NCBI GenBank assembly: GCA_018674305.1
Contig: JABHAL010000015.1
Coordinates: 128,532-192,531 of the forward strand
Source of the DNA: Candidatus Falkowbacteria bacterium
Lineage (GTDB): Bacteria; Patescibacteriota; Patescibacteriia; UBA11705; JABHMO01
Length of the DNA stretch: 64,000 nucleotides
Direction of reading: 5' to 3'
Shown: piece by piece, positions 1,890 through 49,002 of the stretch
Numbering within the stretch: position 1 is the stretch's first letter
Layout: each line of letters opens with the position of its first letter
The notes under the pieces: model-generated
The model's database searches: none
What the model was told of the DNA's origin: nothing
Seen by the model: only the letters and a program-made list of their open reading frames with translations
Position numbers and translations under genes: made by a program

Positions 1890-1928
1890 GGTAAATCATT
1901 GTTGATTTTCCCTATTGTCTTTTGGATT

Positions 1929-2411
1929 CTACTCACCACGTTTTTTCTGCACGTACTTTTTAATCTGTTCGTTTGTACATTCTTTTGCCTGCTGACCCAA
2001 TTCATCATAAAAGGGTCTTTCAAAAACATGTACTGACCCATCCAATGAATCCGTTGTACAATACTTTCTCTGACCGGTCCAGCGGTCAACAAGTTGATCA
2101 CCACTGATAAAAAACATGGCCAAGGAATGCAAGGCAAACATTCCCAACAAAAGAGCAAAACCTAGGTTTCTCTTTTTTTTATTCCAACGAAGGAATAACC
2201 TAAAAATTGCAAACCACAGTACAAAGCCAACAACAACTGCGATGACGTTGGCTAAATAAACATTCAGACCTAACCCTAAAACCTGGCTTAGGGCGTATGG
2301 ATATATCATCAGGAAGCCGAGAAAACTGGCATATCGGAACATCCCAACTAACAGCAAAATTCCCATCACTAGAAGGGAAATGCCCAACAGTAGCCTTTTG
2401 TTATTATTCAT
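1929..2411 (-). CDS. Array paralog 6 (shortest): 3-TM N-domain plus Cys-containing domain only
   Basis: Shares GFLMxYPY...NxYLA...LWxxIF..LHSLAM and YC..YDELG..KEC motifs with the other five paralogs. SD GGGAGG upstream. Confidence 0.85.
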   Translation of the reverse strand: MNNNKRLLLGISLLVMGILLLVGMFRYASFLGFLMIYPYALSQVLGLGLNVYLANVIAVVVGFVLWFAIFRLFLRWNKKKRNLGFALLLGMFALHSLAMFFISGDQLVDRWTGQRKYCTTDSLDGSVHVFERPFYDELGQQAKECTNEQIKKYVQKKRGE

Positions 2412-2423
2412 CTTAAACCTCCC

Positions 2424-3452
2424 TTATTCAAGATCATCTTTAAACACCCAGACAAAAAATGAATGTACAATAAGACTAATTATTACAGTCATATACCCTA
2501 GAATTGCCAATCTAGTAGCATACACCAAGCAATACCCAACTCCCCCCATAAGTCCACCTACCGTCAAAGTCACAATCAAGACCTTCAGAGTGAGCTCATT
2601 TCTTTCTTTACTGTCATATTCAGAATGATCTAAATACATAAATATAAAGCCAGATATTACTAATGTGAAAAGAAGTGTTATTATTATAGTAAAAGTTACA
2701 ATTGAGTCCATTGGATTTGATATTTCTTTTTTTAGCGAACTGGAATGTGTTTCTGTAGGTTGATGAAATTGCGTACTTGTTTTTTTCTTGGGCCCCTCAT
2801 TTCGCCAACGTGCTTGATTTTGTTCAGCTTTGGCAAATGACTGTTCTCTGATCTTTTCCATTCCAGTGTCAGTTTTTATTCCACGCTTTTTTTGCACAAA
2901 TTCCAAGGCCTGACTCTTATTACACTTTCTAGCCTTTTGGCCAAATTCATCATAGATTGGTTGATCAAACACCTGTAGTTCATTTGTGATTTTGTCATAA
3001 GTACAATATTTAATCACTTGGCCTGTTTGGGGGTCATAAATTCTTGAGCTGGTAATAAAATACATTGCCAGAGAGTGGGCAACAAAGATAAAAGCCAGCA
3101 AAATAAAACCTCGTTCCATTTTCTTTCTATTTAAACTGAAAAACAGTTTAAATATTGCGTACCACAGAATTGCTCCAACACCGACTGCAATTGCCTTGGC
3201 TAAATATTGATTCAACCCAAGCCCGAGGAGTTGCTCCAGGGCGTAAGGATAAACCATTAAAAAACCAAAAACTGATGCATAGCGCCAGGTGCCAATCAGA
3301 AGCAAAATTGCCACGACTAGTAAAAATATTCCTAGTTGCAATTTCTTTTTTCTAATTTTTTCTCTTTCTAACAATTCATGAATAGAAGTAATTGAAATAC
3401 CAGGACTCGTGTCTGGCCCTTTTGCAAAATGATTCTTTTTCTTCTGACTCAT
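2424..3452 (-). CDS. Array paralog 5: membrane protein with C-terminal 3-TM region
   Basis: FGFLMVYPY...HSLAM...YC...YDEFG..RKC motifs. Start moved to MSQKK, which follows GGAGG. Confidence 0.85.
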   Translation of the reverse strand: MSQKKKNHFAKGPDTSPGISITSIHELLEREKIRKKKLQLGIFLLVVAILLLIGTWRYASVFGFLMVYPYALEQLLGLGLNQYLAKAIAVGVGAILWYAIFKLFFSLNRKKMERGFILLAFIFVAHSLAMYFITSSRIYDPQTGQVIKYCTYDKITNELQVFDQPIYDEFGQKARKCNKSQALEFVQKKRGIKTDTGMEKIREQSFAKAEQNQARWRNEGPKKKTSTQFHQPTETHSSSLKKEISNPMDSIVTFTIIITLLFTLVISGFIFMYLDHSEYDSKERNELTLKVLIVTLTVGGLMGGVGYCLVYATRLAILGYMTVIISLIVHSFFVWVFKDDLE

Positions 3453-3579: not shown

Positions 3580-4695
3580 TTATGGGTGAAGTAAGTTATG
3601 GAATGATCTACGAATCATTGAAAAATCTATATCTAATGAACTATCTTCAACAATAAAATACAATAACACACAATACCCAAAAATCAATAACGCGCCAACC
3701 GGAATTCCAAAAATGAAAACAAGTACTGCTGGAGCATTATAATATACAATAATAGTTGCCAAATCAGCAACCAAAATTATAATAATAGAAATTGGCAACG
3801 CTGAAAACACTACCAACACAGAAAACTGCCAATAACCACTATCCGCTCCAGCCAACATAAACAAAACACCACCAACAAGACAAAAAATGAACAAAAGAAA
3901 TGCCAAGCCACCAGTAGTTTGATAATCCATAAAAGCAAATAAGTTGAAATTAAAATCTGACTCGTCGGATTCAATCTCTTCAACGTCTTCATTACTATTT
4001 TCCCATTCGAGATAATTACCTTTCGTTGACGTCCGTTTGACTATAGCTGGTGTTACTTGCCTTACATTGCCACCCCAAGGACAATGGCCAACCATATTAA
4101 AGAAGCGAACAATTCCGTCTATGTCATAGCAGTAATAAAATATTGACTTGCCAGTTGTTGGACTAATAAAGCCCTTTTTTATCTGAACAAAATCAATTTC
4201 CTGATTTTCATCAGGCTCATATTTTTTTTCAATTTCAAATCTTTCAACTTGATCATCTTCACAACGATAAGCAAGATCACCAAACTCATCGTAAAGCTGA
4301 GCCTCATAAACCTTAACCCGACCGGTCAAACGATCATCAATACAAAATTTTCGCTCTCCAGTAATCGGATGTACAATCGTATTGTAATTAACTGCGTACA
4401 TCACCAGGGAATGACTAATGAAGATTAATCCAATTATTGCAAATCCAATGTAGCGTCGCTTTTTATTCCAACTAAGAAAAAACTTAAAGATAACTACCCA
4501 TAAACCGACACCGGCTATTAGGGCAATCACTTGAGCCAGATAAATATTAAGGCCGTAGCCAGAAATCTGTGCTACCACATACGGATAAAACATTAAAAAA
4601 CCAAAAAACTCAGCGTACATTGCTATTCCAACCAGCAAAAATACTGCCAAACCAATAAAAAACACACCAATAGACAACTTTGTCCACTTTGACAT
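3580..4695 (-). CDS. Array paralog 4: membrane protein with CPWGG domain and C-terminal TM region
   Basis: Family motifs plus GFISPTTGK..FYYC..GHCPWGG. Very similar to 4824..5930 at the N-terminus. Confidence 0.88.
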   Translation of the reverse strand: MSKWTKLSIGVFFIGLAVFLLVGIAMYAEFFGFLMFYPYVVAQISGYGLNIYLAQVIALIAGVGLWVVIFKFFLSWNKKRRYIGFAIIGLIFISHSLVMYAVNYNTIVHPITGERKFCIDDRLTGRVKVYEAQLYDEFGDLAYRCEDDQVERFEIEKKYEPDENQEIDFVQIKKGFISPTTGKSIFYYCYDIDGIVRFFNMVGHCPWGGNVRQVTPAIVKRTSTKGNYLEWENSNEDVEEIESDESDFNFNLFAFMDYQTTGGLAFLLFIFCLVGGVLFMLAGADSGYWQFSVLVVFSALPISIIIILVADLATIIVYYNAPAVLVFIFGIPVGALLIFGYCVLLYFIVEDSSLDIDFSMIRRSFHNLLHP

Positions 4696-4823: not shown

Positions 4824-5930
4824 CTATTTATCTTTGAACATGTTTTTGATAACGTATCTTGCGTCACAAAAATCTCGTTCCAAAGAAGTATTTTTAGAAA
4901 TCCAAATAACTATCAGGTAATATCCAAGTGTCACTAAAACGAATATTGGTATACCAAAAATAGCCATAAAAAAATTGGGAACCTTCAGATGAGACATCCA
5001 AACTGCCAAATCCGCTATTAATATCCCTATAAAGGTCATTGGGAATATTGAGAACACACACAAAGAACAAAATTTCAACGAACGAATACCTATCCCAGCA
5101 AGAAAAAAAATCATCAATACAATCAAAATAACAAGAAAGCAAAATGCAAACAATAGAGTCGCTTCCTTATTTTTTTCAAAGGCAAAGAAATTAATTTTTG
5201 AAGCAGGCTTAACCTGCGGCTCACTTATTTCACGTGCTATTGGTCGGTAATTGTTGTTTTCCTTCGTTTGTTTAATAATATCTGCAGTTACATCTGAAAG
5301 TTCACCGCCCCAAGGACAATGACCACGCATATTAAAAAAATGAACTCTGGCTTCAGTGTCATTGCAATAGAAAAATATTGCTTTTCCCGTTTTCTGACTT
5401 ATAAAACCATTTGCAACCTGATAAAAATCAATTTCTTGATTATTGTCCATTGCATATCTTTTATTAATTTCAAAGCGTCTGAGTTGGCTATCATTACATC
5501 TAATAGACTGGTCACCAAATTCGTCATAACTGTGCCCTTCATAGACCTTTACGCGCCCACTCAATTTATCGTCAATGCAAAACTTTCGATCTCCAGTAAT
5601 TGGATGAACAATCGTGTTGTAATTAACTGCGTACATTACTAGTGAATGACTGACAAAAATTAAAACGATCAACCCAAAACCGATGTAGCGTCTTTTTTTA
5701 TTCCAGCTCAAAAAGAACTTAAAAATAGTTACCCATAGCCCGATGCCGATAATTAAACCGATCACTTGAGCCAAATAAATATTAAGGCCGTAACCAGAAA
5801 CTTTCACCACGATATATGGGTAAACCATTAAAAAACCAATGAAATCCGCGTACATCACAAGACCAAGGAAAAGAAATACTGCCAAACCAACAAAAAAAAT
5901 ACCCAAAGTTCGCTTTGTCCACTTTAACAT
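4824..5930 (-). CDS. Array paralog 3: membrane protein with CPWGG domain and C-terminal TM region
   Basis: Family motifs HSLVMYAVNYNTIVHPITG, RKFC, YDEFG, GHCPWGG. Confidence 0.88.
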   Translation of the reverse strand: MLKWTKRTLGIFFVGLAVFLFLGLVMYADFIGFLMVYPYIVVKVSGYGLNIYLAQVIGLIIGIGLWVTIFKFFLSWNKKRRYIGFGLIVLIFVSHSLVMYAVNYNTIVHPITGDRKFCIDDKLSGRVKVYEGHSYDEFGDQSIRCNDSQLRRFEINKRYAMDNNQEIDFYQVANGFISQKTGKAIFFYCNDTEARVHFFNMRGHCPWGGELSDVTADIIKQTKENNNYRPIAREISEPQVKPASKINFFAFEKNKEATLLFAFCFLVILIVLMIFFLAGIGIRSLKFCSLCVFSIFPMTFIGILIADLAVWMSHLKVPNFFMAIFGIPIFVLVTLGYYLIVIWISKNTSLERDFCDARYVIKNMFKDK

Positions 5931-33831: not shown

Positions 33832-35669
33832 ATGTTCGAGATCATTAAAATAGATGGAAAGTTGTTCAGACACGAAGTATTATGCACGAAGGAATTTTTC
33901 CTACCAATGAAGAGAAAAAACCAAATTCATTGGGCAGCAATGAGTGAAGCTGAAATCATCTTGTATGCAAAAGCTTATTGTCAGCATCATGAAATCAAAA
34001 GACAGAGGCACCTTGCCAATGGAAAGAACAAACACGACGGGCTTTACAACATCCTTTATAAATCCAAATGGATGAGGCAAGTTTTCATCGTCGATGAAAC
34101 TAAACCTGTAAGACTGGGTGAGGATGATTTTATTATACCTTTGGATGGTGGCGGCAGGGTCAGCTGGAAAAGCATGTCGCGTCAGGAAAAAATTGATTAT
34201 ATAATTGCCTACTGCAAGGAGTTTAATATTACCAACTCCACACAACTCCAAAAAGGTCCTAACAAGAACCCCGGAATGCACAGTAGGTTACTTGACGATA
34301 AACTGATGACTGACATCTTCGACCGAGAAAGGCTTGAAACGTTGTGTGGAGAACCCTTTCTTATTCCTCTATGTGCAATTGACAAAGTTGCTTGGGAAAA
34401 AATGTCCGAAGACGAGATCATTGAATATGCAAAAGCTTATTGCAAACATCACAAGATCAAAGGCTCTGGGGCATTGTCAAATCACAAAACTAAGCGCAAC
34501 ACAGGCATGTACAAAGCACTCATGGACAGAACCTTGCTAGATCGAGTTTTCAGCCGACCAAAAACAAAATCCTATCCAGTCAACGGAACAACATATACTT
34601 TCCAAATTCGCAAAAACCGACAAATTGACTGGAAATTGGTAACTAAAAAGAGATTAGAAAAATTTGGTCGAGATTACTGCATCGAATACGGGATAAAAAC
34701 TCGCACTCAATTGAAAAACAAAAATGCGGGACTGTGCAACCAAAAGAGACGCCAAAGTGCTTGATCTGGTTTTGCCACAAAAATTCAGACCTTTCCCTAT
34801 TGGCCAAGAAACATTTCGTCTGCCTATGATTGGCAGCCGGATCGCCTGGAAACTTTGGACAAACCAAGAACTACTTACGTTTGCCAAAGCTTATATCATA
34901 GAACACAACATTGCGGACTCAGGAGACTTGGGATACGGAAATCATAGATTCTCTGAATTGTACAAGTGCCTGATTCGATGTGAACTCATGCATGATTTAT
35001 TTAATCTTGAAAGCGAAAGACCAGAAAAATGGCAGGAACAGGAATTTACACTTCCAATCCTCACTACCGGTGATGTAAATTGGGAAAAATTCGACAATAA
35101 AAAACTCGAAAATTATGCCAAAGCATATTGCGCGCACTTTGCGATTGTTTACCGAGAGCAACTCAAGAAAAAAAAACGAAGCACTTGTTGGGGTATTAGA
35201 AAGAAGAAAATTAATACACAAAATTTTTCCCAAAGAAACTACCGTCTTAGCCTTTGAAAGCCGTCATTTCAAATTCAAGGTAAGAAGAGCGAAAGTTCTC
35301 TGGCACTTAGCTAAAATTGAAACTCTGAATATTTACGCCGCGTGTTGGTGTATTGCAAATAAAAAAAACGTCAACGACCTACCAAAAGAAATAAAATAAC
35401 ATATTCAGATTGGCACTGTCGCAAGATTTACAAAACATCTACCGACACTGAATATCGAAATCGCTGGTGAACTGAGATGGAAATACGAGATATCCAGCAA
35501 CAACGATATTCCTGAAGAAATTCTTTGGGCCCTTGGTTACGAACGCTATAACAACACGGCGTTGAGAGCAAGAGGGATTAGAAAAATCAAGCCAAAACAG
35601 CCAGTAAAGGTTTCTTCAGTGAAAGAAGTCTTAGACGCTGGACAAATCCCAACGGTGGACGATTTCTGA
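33832..35669 (+). pseudogene. Disrupted repeat protein (W..MS..E...YAKAYC repeats) with two frameshifts and one nonsense codon
   Basis: ORFs 33832..34764, 34724..35257 and 35115..35399 continue the same repeat. The frame reopens after TAA 35397-35399 and runs to TGA 35669. Confidence 0.75.
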
Positions 35670-37820: not shown

Positions 37821-39446
37821 CTACTCATCACAAACTTCACCATTGTGATCAAGTTTAACAACAAACGCGTCAGCAAAACCGTTATTAGGATAAACATTGC
37901 CAGCCACTACAAAACCAAGAGTCTCAGTTTGCGCTACGGCCATGCCGTTTTCCATATCAGTTCCGCCAAATGTCTTTTGCCATTCAACTTCACCATCATT
38001 AAAAAGTTTTACCAGCCAGACGTCGGACATCCCGGCGCCCATGGACCAAGTATCACCCACAGCAATATAGCCAGTATCTTCAGTTTGCTGAATTGAATGA
38101 AACAAATCAATTTCACTGCCACCAAGGACTTGTTCCCAAAGCAGATCACCTTCATAGCTTAGCTTAAAAATCCAGCCTTGCCACTGCTCAGCAGGGTCGA
38201 GCTGAATTATTCCAGTAAACACTAAGCCCCCATCAAAAGACTGAATAACCTTGTGCACTTCGTTCTTAGTTCCCCCGGAAAATGATTTTTCCCAGACTAA
38301 TTCGCCAGAATTATCCAACTTTAACACTTTGGCAGTTTGTATATTTTCAATTATATCCTGAGTGTAGCCGGACAAAATAAATCCATCGGAAACAAGTCCG
38401 GGACCAAAGACCTGATCAATTGAGGTACCCCAATCTTCAGCTGATCCACCGTATTTTTTCTCCCACTCGAGCTCGCCAAACTGACTCAATCGCAAAACCC
38501 AAAAATCTTTTCCGCCTGCGCTATCCGTTGTGGAATAGCCAACTGCCGTAAACTTTCCATCATCCGTCTGCACTACATCATACACTCGATCATTACCGGC
38601 GCCACCAAATTTCTCGCTCCAAACTATTGAACCATTGTCAGGATCAAGCTGAAGGATCCAAGCATCAAACAGAACTGAATCGGGTTGTTGTGCATAGCCT
38701 GCAACAACATAACCACCACCAAAAACTTCTTTGACAGACTCAGCCCATTCCATACTACCTTCATCACCAGTAATCACGGTCCATAGAACTTCACCTAATT
38801 CATCTAGCTTAGCCACAAAGAAGTCATGTTCCAAAGTAGCGCCCGGTCCAACAAAGCCTACAGCAACACAACCACCATCTGCTGTCAGTGTTAAATCGCT
38901 GAAATAATCAGCTTCCATTGTGATAAAATCCGTTTGCCACAAGTCACAAGACTTATCTTGACAAATACCACTCTCATCACAAAACTGCCAAAGATCACAG
39001 TTTTCATCACAAAAATCATCCAAACATTCAATATTACAATGAAGCTTGCAAATGCCATCTTCGCAATATTTATCCGGATGACATTCTTGAATCTCAGTCC
39101 ATTGCCAACAGTCCGACGCCACCTCGAAGCAATATTGGTATTCTTGACCTGAAACACATTTTCGTTCATCAGGCGAACAATTGGATTCACAAGAAACTTC
39201 AGAGTTATCTATACTCAAATCTTCAACTTCAATTTCCGATTGCTCTTCCGAATCGATTTGACCACTGTCTTTTTTGTGAACATTCAAATCTTCATTCACA
39301 ATAAACTCTTGGAAATCGATATCCTGTTCAAGCTCAATATTTGAATCGCTAGGCAACTCCCCAACTACTATGTCTGAGAGAATCCCTGTTGTTGAAGCGC
39401 CACATGAGCAAAGAAACAATACAAGTAAAATGATGATTTTTTTCAT
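37821..39446 (-). CDS. Lipoprotein with Cys-rich linker and beta-propeller repeat domain
   Basis: Lipobox LCSC; repeats of T.DGG.V..G...D.W..KL...G...W.K..GG. Confidence 0.85.
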   Translation of the reverse strand: MKKIIILLVLFLCSCGASTTGILSDIVVGELPSDSNIELEQDIDFQEFIVNEDLNVHKKDSGQIDSEEQSEIEVEDLSIDNSEVSCESNCSPDERKCVSGQEYQYCFEVASDCWQWTEIQECHPDKYCEDGICKLHCNIECLDDFCDENCDLWQFCDESGICQDKSCDLWQTDFITMEADYFSDLTLTADGGCVAVGFVGPGATLEHDFFVAKLDELGEVLWTVITGDEGSMEWAESVKEVFGGGYVVAGYAQQPDSVLFDAWILQLDPDNGSIVWSEKFGGAGNDRVYDVVQTDDGKFTAVGYSTTDSAGGKDFWVLRLSQFGELEWEKKYGGSAEDWGTSIDQVFGPGLVSDGFILSGYTQDIIENIQTAKVLKLDNSGELVWEKSFSGGTKNEVHKVIQSFDGGLVFTGIIQLDPAEQWQGWIFKLSYEGDLLWEQVLGGSEIDLFHSIQQTEDTGYIAVGDTWSMGAGMSDVWLVKLFNDGEVEWQKTFGGTDMENGMAVAQTETLGFVVAGNVYPNNGFADAFVVKLDHNGEVCDE

Positions 39447-39587: not shown

Positions 39588-40709
39588 CTAGAAATTGTCA
39601 TTCAACGTACGGTAGACAAAACCCTCACTGGCGGTGATAGTAGCAATGTACACATCTCCACCAACCGTAGGAATTTGATTCTTGATGTACGAATGAAATT
39701 CCGAGGTTGAATCAATCAACCACTTAATAACCTTCAGACACTCCCGCAGGGTCATATCACTCATGTGGTCAATGCTAGCCCCTTCACGAATATTTTGCAT
39801 AAGATCTTCACACATTGCCATCCCGAGCGACATACTGACACCAGCAAAGTCAAATTCATCGGTAGCCTCGTCAAAAGATCCGTCCGGAGCTCTCTTCTTC
39901 GCTTCTTCAAAAAGCGCATCGATATCTTTCAAGCCATCTTCCAACATCTTCTTAAGGTCGGACGCTGGAAGCTTCTCGGTTGGCAAAGTACCACCTTCTG
40001 CACACAAACCCAAAAGATACGTGAGCATTTCCGTGACTTTGTCTTTCAAAAGGTCTGGCAAGCGCGTATCTCTCCCCAGGATCATTCTGTCCACAACGCC
40101 AGTATCGCCAAGCGGATAAAACAACTTGCCGCTACCAAGCTTGACAAAGTCAAAGTTTATCTTCTTCTCATTGTCATGAACCTTTGACTTGTAAATGACT
40201 CTCGCAAAATAGCAAATGTAATCCTTTTGGACTGGGCAATATCCAGCAAAAATAAAGGATCCGAAACGCGAAGAGCCGTTCAATTCTTCCATGGCGACCG
40301 TCATCCTGACTTTCATGGAATTCATGTAATCCTCAAAAGCCAGATCCTCAGATGCTCCTTCTTTTTGCATTTCCTGAGCTACACTGACCACCATGTTATC
40401 AATCAAAGCATCCCCTACGGTCATCACACCGCCAAAAGGCTTCCCATCCTTGTAGAAAGTTGGAAACAACTTTTTAGCACGAAAACTTTTGATGACTGCG
40501 TCGTCTTTTGCCTGAACCATTTTTTTCATAGCTTCTGCTTTCAGAGCAGCAAGGTCGACTTCGTCAGCACCCTCCTTTTGTGCTTCATCAAACAACTCTT
40601 TGATTTCTGACCACAAGTTGACCTCAAAGAATGTGCGTGACGTAGAAACCAAACTGTCAGCTCCAAGTGCCACACCGTGCTCATTACAAATCATAATTCC
40701 TAAACTCAT
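39588..40709 (-). CDS. Ntn-hydrolase / proteasome-beta-like protein
   Basis: N-terminal (M)SLGI...GVALGADS and C-terminal TVGGDV.IATIT. Confidence 0.65.
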   Translation of the reverse strand: MSLGIMICNEHGVALGADSLVSTSRTFFEVNLWSEIKELFDEAQKEGADEVDLAALKAEAMKKMVQAKDDAVIKSFRAKKLFPTFYKDGKPFGGVMTVGDALIDNMVVSVAQEMQKEGASEDLAFEDYMNSMKVRMTVAMEELNGSSRFGSFIFAGYCPVQKDYICYFARVIYKSKVHDNEKKINFDFVKLGSGKLFYPLGDTGVVDRMILGRDTRLPDLLKDKVTEMLTYLLGLCAEGGTLPTEKLPASDLKKMLEDGLKDIDALFEEAKKRAPDGSFDEATDEFDFAGVSMSLGMAMCEDLMQNIREGASIDHMSDMTLRECLKVIKWLIDSTSEFHSYIKNQIPTVGGDVYIATITASEGFVYRTLNDNF

Positions 40710-40866
40710 GACATACCTCCACTTTGTTAAAATACAATTATATTCAACGTAATTGTTGACTGAAAATTATACACTATTGACATGATTTGTCAAGTGTTAG
40801 AACACAATTCAAACAAATTATTTAGATTGATTAACTTGAAACCTACAGTTTACACACCGACAGACT

Positions 40867-40985
40867 CTACTTTTTGACCCCAAAAAGTAGCAAAAAGGCT
40901 GGGGCTCCACAATTCGCTTCTTACTCTTTTAGTATATCTTTCTTATTACGGCTCAATGTTCTGCCCCAGACCCCGCCCTGCTATT
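40867..40985. repeat. Palindromic REP/MITE-like element
   Basis: CTACTTTTTG-ACCC-CAAAAAGTAG plus distant pairing CTGGGGC/GCCCCAG in a non-coding gap. Confidence 0.4.
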
Positions 40986-41068: not shown

Positions 41069-41644
41069 CTAAACAACCAAATATGCAATATCTAATCCTA
41101 TATCAAATCTATTATACTTTTCAAAGTTAAAACCCTCTAAGCCAGGATAATGAAAAAGGTCTTCGATCTTCTCATTTTTCAATGCATCATGATAGTTATA
41201 AATAATAATTGACCCACCTGGCGCTAAAAAGTTTTTCAACTTTTCAACTACGCTTTTTCTGTCCTTTTCATATAATAAATATGGTTCCAAAATAATATAC
41301 TTAAATTTTATTTCCGTAGAAAATAAATCGATTGAACAGCAATAAAAGTTTTCATTGAACTGCGGTAAAATCTCTTCTTTGGCCTGCTCGATCGACTGCT
41401 CCAAAAAATCAACGCCATACGGAACAACATTCAGATTAGAAAAGTATGTTAAATGGCGCAACAATAAACCATTACCACAACCTAGATCCAAAACATTGCC
41501 ATCTTCCTCTAGGTATTGCAAAAAACTATTATAAATATCCATTGGATAATCTTTGAAACCGTTTACATTAATCAATCCAGGCGTTTGTTCCAGCCAATAT
41601 TTTTCATAAAACTGTTTTTGTCTTGTCTCGTAAAAATTACTCAT
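41069..41644 (-). CDS. Class I SAM-dependent methyltransferase (RiPP locus)
   Basis: VLDLGCGNG, YGVD, LAPGG. Overlaps the rSAM stop codon. Confidence 0.88.
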   Translation of the reverse strand: MSNFYETRQKQFYEKYWLEQTPGLINVNGFKDYPMDIYNSFLQYLEEDGNVLDLGCGNGLLLRHLTYFSNLNVVPYGVDFLEQSIEQAKEEILPQFNENFYCCSIDLFSTEIKFKYIILEPYLLYEKDRKSVVEKLKNFLAPGGSIIIYNYHDALKNEKIEDLFHYPGLEGFNFEKYNRFDIGLDIAYLVV

Positions 41645-42752
41645 AAATACTAGCTTTTATGTGTTCAATTAGCTGTATTGTTTCCCGACAATAAATTGAC
41701 GGTGCGTCATAAGTATCTTTGCCTGTATGTCGGAAAGCGTGGCCACCAGAACCGCAAATATTCAAATAATCACAACTCACACATTGCTCCGGCAAGTTAA
41801 CTTCCGATTGGTGTAGAGCTTTTACTTTGGAATGATCAAAGAAATCAACCAATTTATTTTTCTGTACATTCAGACCAAGTTCCACAAAACCATCTCCACA
41901 AATTCTCAGATCATCAACTAGCTGGATACTTCCATCGGTGTCAATTGTCAACATATCTAAACCTGAATGTCGAATCGAACACATCGGCTCATTAGAACCA
42001 ATTAATAAATCAATTATACTATCAAAAATTCTAATCGACACTTCAGGATCGTCCATAGCTAAATATTTTTCAAAAATCGGTTTTAACCAATCGAAATATT
42101 CACTTTTATTTTCATTATAACCAAAAGGGTTATGCGGATTTCTAAGTGGTAACAAAAAGTCAACTTTTTTCACACCCAATTGCAGGAAATGATCATACAA
42201 TTCCAAAGGATCACTCTTGCTATCTATCACGCACAGTAATCCACGAAAACAGGCTGGATCAGCCTTGGCTTGCAACTGTTTCAAACCGCGGACAATGTTA
42301 TTATATGAATCTTCACCGGACTTCATTTTTGATTTGTTTTGTACATCAGGACCGCCATCCAGACTTATACCGACTTTTAATTTATGTTTGTTAAATAATT
42401 CAATGAATTCATCATTTATCAAGGTTCCATTGGTTTGCATTGAAACACCCACACCTGGAATCTTGTTCAGGTTAGTCAAAATATAATCTAACTTTTCAAG
42501 TCCCAAAATTAATGGTTCACCACCGTGCAAAACAACTTCTAACTGCTCAACCTTATTTTCCTTTACATACTCCGTCAGACGCTGACACACTTTTTCAATC
42601 ATGGCAGAAGAAATAATTGGTGGTTTTTTATTAAAACTATTGTCCGGCCCGCTAAACATAAAACAGTGCGGGCAAGCCATGTTACAAACTTCAGTAACTT
42701 TGAAAACAACTGTACTAATTATTTTGTCGTAAGCTCTTTCATTTATTTTCAT
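41637..42752 (-). CDS. Radical SAM/SPASM peptide maturase, FxsB (cyclophane-forming)-like
   Basis: KV...CNMACPHCFM, LHGGEPL, QTNG.L, ISLDG, IDTDGSI..VD.L, CxxC.....CGSG...C. Confidence 0.88.
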   Translation of the reverse strand: MKINERAYDKIISTVVFKVTEVCNMACPHCFMFSGPDNSFNKKPPIISSAMIEKVCQRLTEYVKENKVEQLEVVLHGGEPLILGLEKLDYILTNLNKIPGVGVSMQTNGTLINDEFIELFNKHKLKVGISLDGGPDVQNKSKMKSGEDSYNNIVRGLKQLQAKADPACFRGLLCVIDSKSDPLELYDHFLQLGVKKVDFLLPLRNPHNPFGYNENKSEYFDWLKPIFEKYLAMDDPEVSIRIFDSIIDLLIGSNEPMCSIRHSGLDMLTIDTDGSIQLVDDLRICGDGFVELGLNVQKNKLVDFFDHSKVKALHQSEVNLPEQCVSCDYLNICGSGGHAFRHTGKDTYDAPSIYCRETIQLIEHIKASIYE

Positions 42753-42776
42753 AGGTGTTCTTAATAATCAAAATAG

Positions 42777-42807
42777 TTGAGAGCAGGTAAAAAACCCACT
42801 CTCTCAA
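42777..42807 (-). terminator. Stem-loop between precursor peptide and rSAM genes
   Basis: TTGAGAG..GGGT-TTTTT-ACCTG-CTCTCAA. Confidence 0.55.
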
Positions 42808-42813
42808 TTCTGA

Positions 42814-42921
42814 CTATCTAAGCCATTGCGCGTGCATTGACTTTAATTCACCGGAAACGTTTTTTGCTTCTACTCTTTTCAGAGCTTTTGCCAAAAGGCT
42901 CATGTTCTTTAAGCTTTTCAT
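42814..42921 (-). CDS. Putative RiPP precursor peptide, 35 aa (absent from the ORF track)
   Basis: MKSLKNMSLLAKALKRVEAKNVSGELKSMHAQWLR*. Leader LAKALKRV and C-terminal His-X-X/Trp-X-X core, directly upstream of the rSAM gene. Confidence 0.8.
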   Translation of the reverse strand: MKSLKNMSLLAKALKRVEAKNVSGELKSMHAQWLR

Positions 42922-43143
42922 ACTTTTGATTATTTAATTAATTAATTATATAAATAGCCTTGGTTACTAACAGTTAACTATCTTGCTTAGATTATATTGA
43001 TTTTCAATTATGAAAACTACTGAAATTTTCAAGAAAACAAAAAAGCACTAAATTTAGTGCTTTATGTTTAAATATATTTGATATTATTTACTAATTTTAA
43101 TTAAAAATCCCACCATTCATGAACAGCAGGATTCAACATACAC

Positions 43144-47426: not shown

Positions 47427-47499
47427 AGAATTTTTGCTAAGTTTTCAGATAATCTCATTGTAACACTCCTGTCAAAAACAAAAAAATGTGCAAAGTGAA

Positions 47500-47585
47500 C
47501 ACATTTTTTATTCAAATTTCCTGATTCAGTTGTAATTTTGCGGAGACGTCAGTGGCTCTTTTTTAGGAGTGAGCTGGGGATAAGT
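47500..47585. repeat. 86-bp direct repeat, copy 1
   Basis: Matches 48917-49002 with one mismatch. Confidence 0.92.
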
Positions 47586-48800: not shown

Positions 48801-48916
48801 ATATCTGAATTATAACACTGCTCAATATACTGTCAAGTGTATATCTTCAATGACAAGATACCTGACAACGGTTAGATGTTTATATTAATTTAAAAACAAA
48901 AAATGCGTCAAAATGG

Positions 48917-49002
48917 CACATTTTTTATTCAAATTTCCTGATTCAGTTGTAATTTTGCGGAGACGTCAGTGGCCCTTTTTTAGGAGTGAGCTGGGGATAA
49001 GT
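48917..49002. repeat. 86-bp direct repeat, copy 2
   Basis: Matches 47500-47585. Confidence 0.92.

Follow-up and report, generated by a model that had tools for sequence, protein, structure and literature searches.

A compact, most likely triceptide-like cassette with a partner methyltransferase in a Candidatus Falkowbacteria genome

The stretch of DNA considered here (the window; 64,000 nt of contig JABHAL010000015.1 from the Candidatus Falkowbacteria bacterium assembly GCA_018674305.1) carries a cassette of 1.9 kb that appears to encode a peptide made on the ribosome and modified after translation (RiPP) and two enzymes that may modify it. Its four elements, all on the minus strand, lie where an original prediction from the letters of the window had placed them: a short open reading frame (ORF), a stem-loop in the gap that follows, a radical S-adenosylmethionine (SAM)/SPASM gene and an overlapping methyltransferase gene. 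The ORF (42814..42921) encodes a 35-aa peptide, MKSLKNMSLLAKALKRVEAKNVSGELKSMHAQWLR, with a Lys-rich leader of net charge +6 and a C-terminus reading K27-S-M-H30-A-Q32-W33-L-R35-stop. Judging by the sequence and the family pattern described below, the predicted core is the terminal hexapeptide H-A-Q-W-L-R (42817..42834), two back-to-back aromatic-x-x motifs, each of which may become cross-linked. Beyond a 61-nt gap (42753..42813) lies the radical SAM/SPASM maturase gene (41637..42752; 371 aa), with CxxxCxxC at residues 23/27/30, SPASM cysteines C324/C327/C333/C355 and no N-terminal RiPP recognition element (RRE) extension, and this overlaps by 8 nt the gene for a class I SAM-dependent methyltransferase (41069..41644; 191 aa; Pfam Methyltransf_31/23/25). 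Precursor, maturase and methyltransferase travel together, as separate genes or fused, and the cassette is most likely triceptide-like, differing from known systems in its core, its tailoring enzyme and its active-site residues.

The precursor gene and its relatives

Endings of the form aromatic-x-x-aromatic-x-x-stop are found at 4051 of the 153085 six-frame stops in the host genome (2.6%), common enough by chance that the motif alone is weak evidence, and the case for the ORF rests on its relatives. Across the same six frames a full match to H-x-Q-W-x-[RK]-stop is seen at a single place, the 35-aa ORF. A search for related loci with an alignment of the maturase clade (described below) gave one in genome contigs, four in metagenomes and none in viral contigs, while a search of the genome contigs with the single protein gave none. 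Four of these five (L001-L005) are distinct, L001 and L004 being the same, and L005 begins inside the maturase gene, with no upstream DNA. The original prediction had looked to homologs for an upstream peptide, and in all three related loci with upstream DNA a homologous short ORF does lie directly upstream of the maturase gene, ending KTLHAQWLRS (L001/L004; 29% GC), KTMHAQWLR (L002; 37%) and KTLHNQWLR (L003; 60%). Because these loci were retrieved through the enzyme, their precursors make an unbiased test.

Eleven matches came from a search of 1.84 billion representatives with a precursor profile, and of these eight are short peptides (three known, five new); the other three, long repeat proteins, were discarded as precursors. 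The loci and this one profile search together give nine distinct precursors sharing the C-terminal pattern K-[ST]-[MLQ]-H-[ANS]-Q-W-[LI]-[RK], with K27, H30, Q32 and W33 invariant and the core ending at the C-terminus or one residue short of it in all nine. Mean identity is 79% over the last nine residues against 33% over the preceding 18, and in the four loci with DNA the core codons (54 codon pairs) show 26 synonymous differences against 10 non-synonymous. The leaders are Lys-rich, with net charges from +6 to +12. A leader motif L..AL.R(V) had been singled out in the original prediction; L..AL.R is present in a Nocardia FxsB-linked peptide but in just one of ten cassette precursor sequences tested, and so is not a conserved feature of the family, although a looser [LI]..A..RV is found in six of the ten. 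With E values up to 10 allowed, none of the nine precursors matches an NCBIfam model.

Four of the five new precursors, taken themselves or through other sequences of their clusters, match a clade maturase in source and in longest DNA piece (9363, 5826, 2226 and 4549/2012 bases), a pairing that is circumstantial. Over eight precursor-enzyme pairs, four of them paired in this way and with kin that are not independent, the divergence of peptide and enzyme is correlated (rho 0.43, permutation p 0.04); co-divergence is only suggestive at this level. Since related loci have a homolog of the 35-aa ORF in the same place, and since its exact pattern is unique in the genome, it is confirmed as a real precursor gene, and there is every reason to expect its peptide to be the substrate of the maturase.

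The gap between precursor and maturase genes is predicted to fold into a terminator-like RNA hairpin (main stem 42779-42803; -19.7 kcal/mol, z -4.9), with none of 200 shuffles equally stable. The corresponding gaps have z-scores of -3.45 in L001, -3.0 in L002 and -0.13 (not significant) in L003. The hairpin is probably an attenuator or mRNA stabiliser, and would keep the precursor mRNA in excess over that of the enzyme.

The maturase and its partner methyltransferase

The original prediction had assigned the maturase to the FxsB type. Its scores with NCBIfam models are 307 bits for YhhB (NF041707, curated cut-off 445), 283 for FxsB (TIGR04269, 370), 159 for XyeB (TIGR04496, 450), 151 for the anaerobic sulfatase-maturating enzyme (anSME; TIGR03942, 349), 117 for DynA (450), 113 for GrrM/OscB (310) and 85 for DarE (650), all of them below the cut-offs; the 25 NCBIfam families listed include no HaaB model. 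By these scores the maturase is not an FxsB member; YhhB scores higher but also falls short. The same order holds in relatives: YhhB is the top family in all ten enzymes scanned (the window's, eight clade members and the sister protein P0016; 254-314 bits, all below 445), with FxsB second in the nine relatives (226-296 bits, all below 370). A clustering with sulfatase maturases, which the original prediction had named as the outcome that would speak against it, is not seen, the YhhB and FxsB scores being about twice that with the anSME model.

A homolog search with the maturase gave 2369 matches, of which 14 (P0002-P0015) are 45-60% identical to it; for the rest of the 120 listed, identity is at most 37%. 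The nearest solved protein by profile is ChlB (176 bits, against 94 for anSME), and an AlphaFold model of the maturase (predicted local distance difference test score, pLDDT, 93) superposes on ChlB with template modelling (TM) scores of 0.90-0.91, against 0.79-0.82 for anSME. In an alignment to 4K37, only one of the four anSME cysteine positions that we take to be ligands of the first auxiliary cluster is Cys in the maturase. A quick maximum-likelihood tree (74 rows, including every second distant match and annotated references from plasmids, but not the fragments P0014 and P0015) places the clade members and P0016 on a long stem (0.96) with a Shimodaira-Hasegawa-like approximate likelihood ratio (SH-aLRT) support of 100, apart from the YhhB, FxsB and XyeB references. 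The 42 plasmid records hold distant relatives only among the enzymes that form cyclophanes of 3 residues (3-CyFE), at 32% identity or less among those listed. Because YhhB and FxsB are the best hidden Markov models and ChlB is the best match by sequence and by fold, all clearly above anSME, the maturase is predicted to be of the cyclophane-forming type, in a clade of its own and in no named family. P0016, sister to the clade, shares L203-R204-N205 and D281 with it, and may have P0169 as its methyltransferase.

In five of the 14 clade homologs (P0007, P0008, P0009, P0010 and P0013; 543-583 aa) a methyltransferase is fused to the maturase, as a C-terminal domain orthologous to the window methyltransferase (41% identity to the P0008 domain), and on account of these fusions the methyltransferase is taken, from sequence, to be a true partner of the maturase. 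The 8-nt overlap between the two genes is also found in L005, making two unfused loci in all; the L002 DNA stops 140 bases past the maturase gene, so that a partner gene there is beyond reach. In a tree of 46 methyltransferases, eight maturase-linked copies and one unplaced protein lie on a 98/98 branch, and monophyly of the eight by themselves is not rejected by the approximately unbiased test (p-AU 0.37). No match to the methyltransferase was found in plasmids. Its relatives P0132-P0168, from Thermococcus and other prokaryotes, form an uncharacterised family marked by the motif NGF..YP and, at the N-terminus, by a helix reading FY..R....YW. That the methyltransferase acts on the peptide is probable, and the overall proposal of a RiPP precursor with a cyclophane-type radical SAM enzyme and a methyltransferase is borne out by the homologs and the enzyme scores.

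Candidate products and known systems

The YhhA/YhhB(/YhhC) triceptide system (NF041707; Sugiyama et al., 2022, by way of the summaries in PMC11002830 and PMC11499958) likewise has a short precursor directly upstream, C-terminal back-to-back His-containing three-residue motifs, and a tailoring gene that follows. YhhA precursors end YDRTHNRHNRGQ and YDRMHHRHNRS. When K-x-x-HAQ-WLR is set against YDR-x-HNR-HNR, the two cassette motifs align with the last two YhhA rings, and for K-T-M-HAQ-WLR(S) the alignment extends to the residue before His and to the optional terminal Ser. Unlike YhhA, the cassette core has no Tyr-Asp-Arg ring and includes Gln and Trp; the maturase has Leu, not Asp, after FLLP; and its partner is a methyltransferase where that of YhhB is a 2-oxoglutarate (2OG)-Fe(II) oxygenase. 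ChlB (PDB 9GM3, 9GMC), from the radical SAM-HExxH fusion ChlBH, resembles five clade members in having a fused tailoring domain, which sets a precedent for a cyclophane synthase joined to an enzyme that acts on the pre-cyclised peptide (PMC12636437, in part). The two differ in that the fused partner in ChlBH is a hydroxylase and in the clade a methyltransferase; ChlB is only ~30% identical to the maturase, and their motifs compare as CYMY/CFMF, FLLPD/FLLPL and GSVPHR/GGHAFR.

Other likenesses are more partial. FxsB is the second-best model and accounts for most of the named distant matches among those listed, but the X3 residue is Ala, Ser or Lys in HaaB, HtkB and FxsB systems and Gln in the first cassette motif. 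The xenorceptides of XyeA/XyeB have W-x-R/K motifs and adjacent rings (WVNVFARWDKAI; FAR-WDK back to back), as in the cassette core, but the Xye locus compared includes an HlyD protein and a peptidase-ABC transporter, and next to the cassette no XyeB/GrrM-type protease or transporter genes were recognised, whether in the window or in L001 and L003. LahSB (PDB 6UAK), a class I RiPP methyltransferase, is a weak profile match (E 2e-6) of a generic kind, among many unrelated class I enzymes. The daropeptide/dynobactin motif is aromatic-X-aromatic (PMC12912966, in part), whereas the aromatics of the cassette core are at i and i+3. HAQWLR, HNQWLR, HSQWIR and HAQWLK do not occur in the open-access literature as searched; the clade could still be listed in supplements to the main triceptide surveys. 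A methylated triceptide was likewise not met in the open-access text covered on triceptides, cyclophanes and methyltransferases, and a 2024 review on the methyltransferases of RiPPs contains neither "cyclophane" nor "triceptide". Predicted triceptide pathways already number about 3,900 (PMC11499958), and the clade may be present but uncharacterised in published triceptide networks.

The reading preferred here, by a modest degree of belief above even, is of a triceptide-type cassette in which cyclophanes would form on HAQ and WLR and the partner methyltransferase would then methylate the peptide. Triceptides are defined by aromatic-X2-X3 motifs (PMC11499958). The middle positions of the core vary among the precursors (A/N/S and L/I) and the last is R or K, while H, Q and W are fixed, which fits two such motifs and gives the invariant Q32 a role. 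The register of the two motifs in the original prediction, H-A-Q and W-L-R, is thus in keeping with the variation in the family as well as with the YhhA alignment. By analogy with triceptide chemistry, the 5'-deoxyadenosyl radical would abstract a C-beta hydrogen of residue i+2, which would couple to the ring of the aromatic residue i, joining the His30 ring to the Gln32 C-beta and the Trp33 ring to the Arg35 C-beta, with a mass change of -2 Da per ring and -4 Da in total. Links from His-C2 to C-beta are established for YhhB, HaaB and HtkB, and one from Trp-C6 to the Arg C-beta for XncB (passages of PMC11002830 and PMC11499958). Cyclophanes on the H-x-Q/W-x-R register seem a good prospect, whereas the chance that both rings form is put at about even.

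Methylation (+14 Da) would follow cross-linking. The C-terminal carboxylate is a tentative first guess for its site, because the core ends at the C-terminus, or one residue short of it, in all nine precursors and no leader-removing protease is conserved; it could be methylated with no need of leader removal, and LahSB is a leader-independent C-terminal carboxyl methyltransferase of RiPPs (PMC11285071, in part). A ring nitrogen of His or Trp is a slightly weaker candidate, and the invariant Lys27 an unlikely one. Since neither a dedicated protease nor a transporter is conserved, the product could be a short core freed by general host proteases, or else the full-length cationic peptide; the bicyclic, possibly methylated hexapeptide of the original prediction would be of the former sort.

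Several observations weigh against this proposal, among them changes in the maturase at otherwise near-invariant positions. Comparison of the clade with 104 other homologs finds F340 in 15/15 members (H in 101/104 others), R261 in 12/15 (G in 104/104), C258 in 13/15 (E/D in 100/104) and F33 in 12/13 (Y in 88/104), with L203, R204, H262, D281, C285 and H338 as further clade-specific residues. The SAM-binding and SPASM cysteines, HGGEP, QTN, SLDG and D280 are retained, and the H/D after FLLP is replaced. This last position bears on specificity: HtkB D214 (basic X3) and HaaB H204 (Ala) are reported to determine the X3 preference (PMC11499958), and by a hand count on the published gene HtkB D214 is the residue after FLLP, which is maturase residue 203. 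Here the clade has Leu in 14 of 15 members, followed by an invariant Arg, so that Arg or Lys as X3 would be less easily accepted and the second (W-x-R/K) ring is weakened. Read from alignments, these changes leave room for other chemistry. In addition, no H-x-Q triceptide was found in the portions of the triceptide literature surveyed, the precursor profile was built from four known precursors and is hence biased to the same core, and no obvious Shine-Dalgarno sequence precedes the window peptide gene, although L001-L003 have one. For the methyltransferase, 37 related proteins, including those of Thermococcus, lie outside the maturase-linked group, and among solved structures none is close, the best TM scores being about 0.65-0.67, to generic class I enzymes.

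Three other accounts can be set against the triceptide reading. The same cassette and substrate could give another cross-link, for example from the His30 ring to the Trp33 C-beta (i, i+3, dynobactin-like), with or without a Trp33-Arg35 link that would make a darobactin-like fused bicycle, or a His-x-Gln ring only; C258, H262, C285 and H338 might then form a metal site peculiar to the clade. The i, i+3, i+6 spacing of the invariant K27, H30 and W33, the whole run of clade-specific substitutions (F33, L203, R204, C258, R261, H262, D281, C285, H338 and F340) and the long stem branch leading to the clade would all suit such chemistry, and dynobactin is known to have a Trp-Asn link spanning i to i+3 as well as one from His-N to the Tyr C-beta (PMC11002830, in part). 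Yet the invariant Q32 is most simply an X3 acceptor, the core register matches YhhA, and the maturase scores far lower with DynA (117) and DarE (85) than with YhhB (307); this account is considered clearly less likely. Alternatively, cyclisation could be of the plain triceptide type with the methyltransferase directed at another substrate, be it a by-product, some small molecule or a target in self-protection, and no methylated peptide made. The many relatives outside the maturase-linked group would agree with this, as would the mostly small-molecule methyltransferases among the solved-structure neighbours and the inactivity on the precursor of HtkC, the co-encoded partner of HtkB (PMC11499958). 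It is made improbable by the fusions in five of 14 clade homologs, by the 8-nt overlap in two unfused loci, and by the gathering of the eight maturase-linked copies on one branch, where only one other sequence, unplaced, joins them.

Finally, the maturase could be a radical SAM enzyme that modifies proteins, in the manner of anSME or otherwise, with the short ORF being incidental or regulatory. The SPASM superfamily is shared (151 bits with the anSME model, TM about 0.8) and the hairpin after the ORF is attenuator-like, but the ORF is conserved as a protein, with synonymous-biased codons, in loci of 29-60% GC; the anSME score is below the cut-off of 349; Cys is aligned at one of the four presumed auxiliary-cluster positions; and no sulfatase was recognised beside the cassette. 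This account is accordingly given very little credence.

Triceptides are rigid, drug-like peptide scaffolds, for which the tailoring steps on record, in the portions of the literature covered, are hydroxylation, ADP-ribosylation and oxidative amidation. If the triceptide reading is true, a methyltransferase-coupled, sometimes fused, synthase acting on an H-x-Q/W-x-R core would bring both a ring type and a tailoring step that are new, and the Leu-Arg of the clade would test the published X3-specificity rule. The kit is small (< 2 kb), exists in nature also as single-protein fusions, and may conceal new chemistry. In a bolder version, considered rather unlikely, the rebuilt active site, possibly with a new Cys/His metal site, would make an unprecedented His/Trp link in K-x-x-H-x-Q-W-x-R; with an often-fused methyltransferase of an uncharacterised family it would yield a methylated bicyclic cationic peptide that needs neither protease nor exporter, from a mobile 1.9-kb cassette in uncultured bacteria, minimal-genome lineages among them; there the peptide may act against hosts or competitors.

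Distribution and genomic surroundings

The host genome is 1.28 Mb and 99.9% complete, with relatives of 0.7-1.4 Mb, and has no match to the ketoacyl synthase and AIRS families, consistent with a lineage of the candidate phyla radiation (CPR). MetK, a cysteine desulfurase adjoining a NifU/IscU scaffold gene, and 16 long frames whose motif resembles that of radical SAM enzymes are present in it, which makes a supply of SAM and Fe-S cofactors plausible. SufBD was not found in the genome. TldD has no match there and a peptidase-ABC transporter was likewise not found, the single C39 match above cut-off being a stand-alone 166-aa frame with no transporter fusion. A minimal-genome bacterium that lacks markers of fatty-acid and purine synthesis can thus carry a peptide-modification cassette along with SAM and Fe-S supply genes. 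Two neighbouring radical SAM/SPASM-like genes, distant relatives of the maturase, are found at C1:194235-195552, just past the end of the window.

The original prediction had made much of the CPR host, but this angle is weaker than claimed, given the patchy occurrence of the cassette and its presence on a contig of 60% GC. It was found in none of 400 sampled genomes of the phylum besides the source genome, nor in 25 other genomes of the order, four of them of the same genus; one of these 25 keeps the flanking NUDIX and macrodomain-like genes, with no cassette in the 40 kb read. L001 is labelled as an uncultured Saccharibacteria contig. L003 (60% GC) has a fused cassette amid genes identified by eye as tyrosine-recombinase-like (1891-2559, minus strand), ParA-like (0-383, minus) and HU-like (4824-5156, minus), which suggests a mobile element, and in L002 the 3' end of a group II intron (23-99; Rfam RF00029, 62.7 bits) lies upstream of the precursor gene at a distance of about 90 nt. 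The cassette is probably a patchy, mobile accessory element and not a lineage trait. An integron cassette was considered and set aside, there being no flanking attC-like site and no repeat array. Near-identical DNA is present in 19 runs of marine metagenomes, which come from 17 studies; 16 of the runs are flagged as possible sources; no RNA run is listed as carrying the cassette region, and four DNA runs, which may include the source sample, have no listed variants inside the cassette.

The statement that no protease or transporter is adjacent stands for transporters, none of which was recognised beside the cassette, and is not strictly established for proteases. The next gene downstream (39588-40709, minus strand) encodes 373 aa starting M-S-L-G-I, with no Pfam or NCBIfam match above cut-off but with a structural lead to the proteasome/N-terminal nucleophile (Ntn) hydrolase fold (TM 0.47-0.58). 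It has its own sigma-70 promoter (12/12; 40793-40766) and a GC content of 44%, against 31-36%, and it was found neither in the related loci L001-L005, which are short, nor in 15 genomes of the family, so it was not retained as a dedicated protease.

Immediately downstream of the cassette, at 40866-40917, is a short palindromic repeat resembling repetitive extragenic palindromic (REP) sequences or miniature inverted-repeat transposable elements (MITEs), with copies of 44-52 nt (79-96%) on C1, C4, C6 and C8. On the other side, the AT-rich upstream region at 42975-43111 is 73% identical over 138 nt to C1:125574-125709 and includes a terminator-like hairpin (43042-43063); loose contig ends of four runs fall in it. 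Farther out, a gene at 37821-39446 (minus strand) encodes a predicted secreted protein or lipoprotein of 541 aa in which a Cys-rich segment is found along with a repeat beta-propeller (weak matches to delta-60 / DUF5122), and its 3' region varies between strains in the sequencing runs. At 33832-35257 (plus strand) two neighbouring ORFs with internal repeats match one 400-aa protein of the same-genus genome G412, and are possibly one split gene. Around a PemK/MazF-like gene and a helix-turn-helix (HTH) antitoxin-like gene, both named by eye, is a 111-nt direct repeat, with copies at 47475-47585 and 48892-49002 that are 90% identical.

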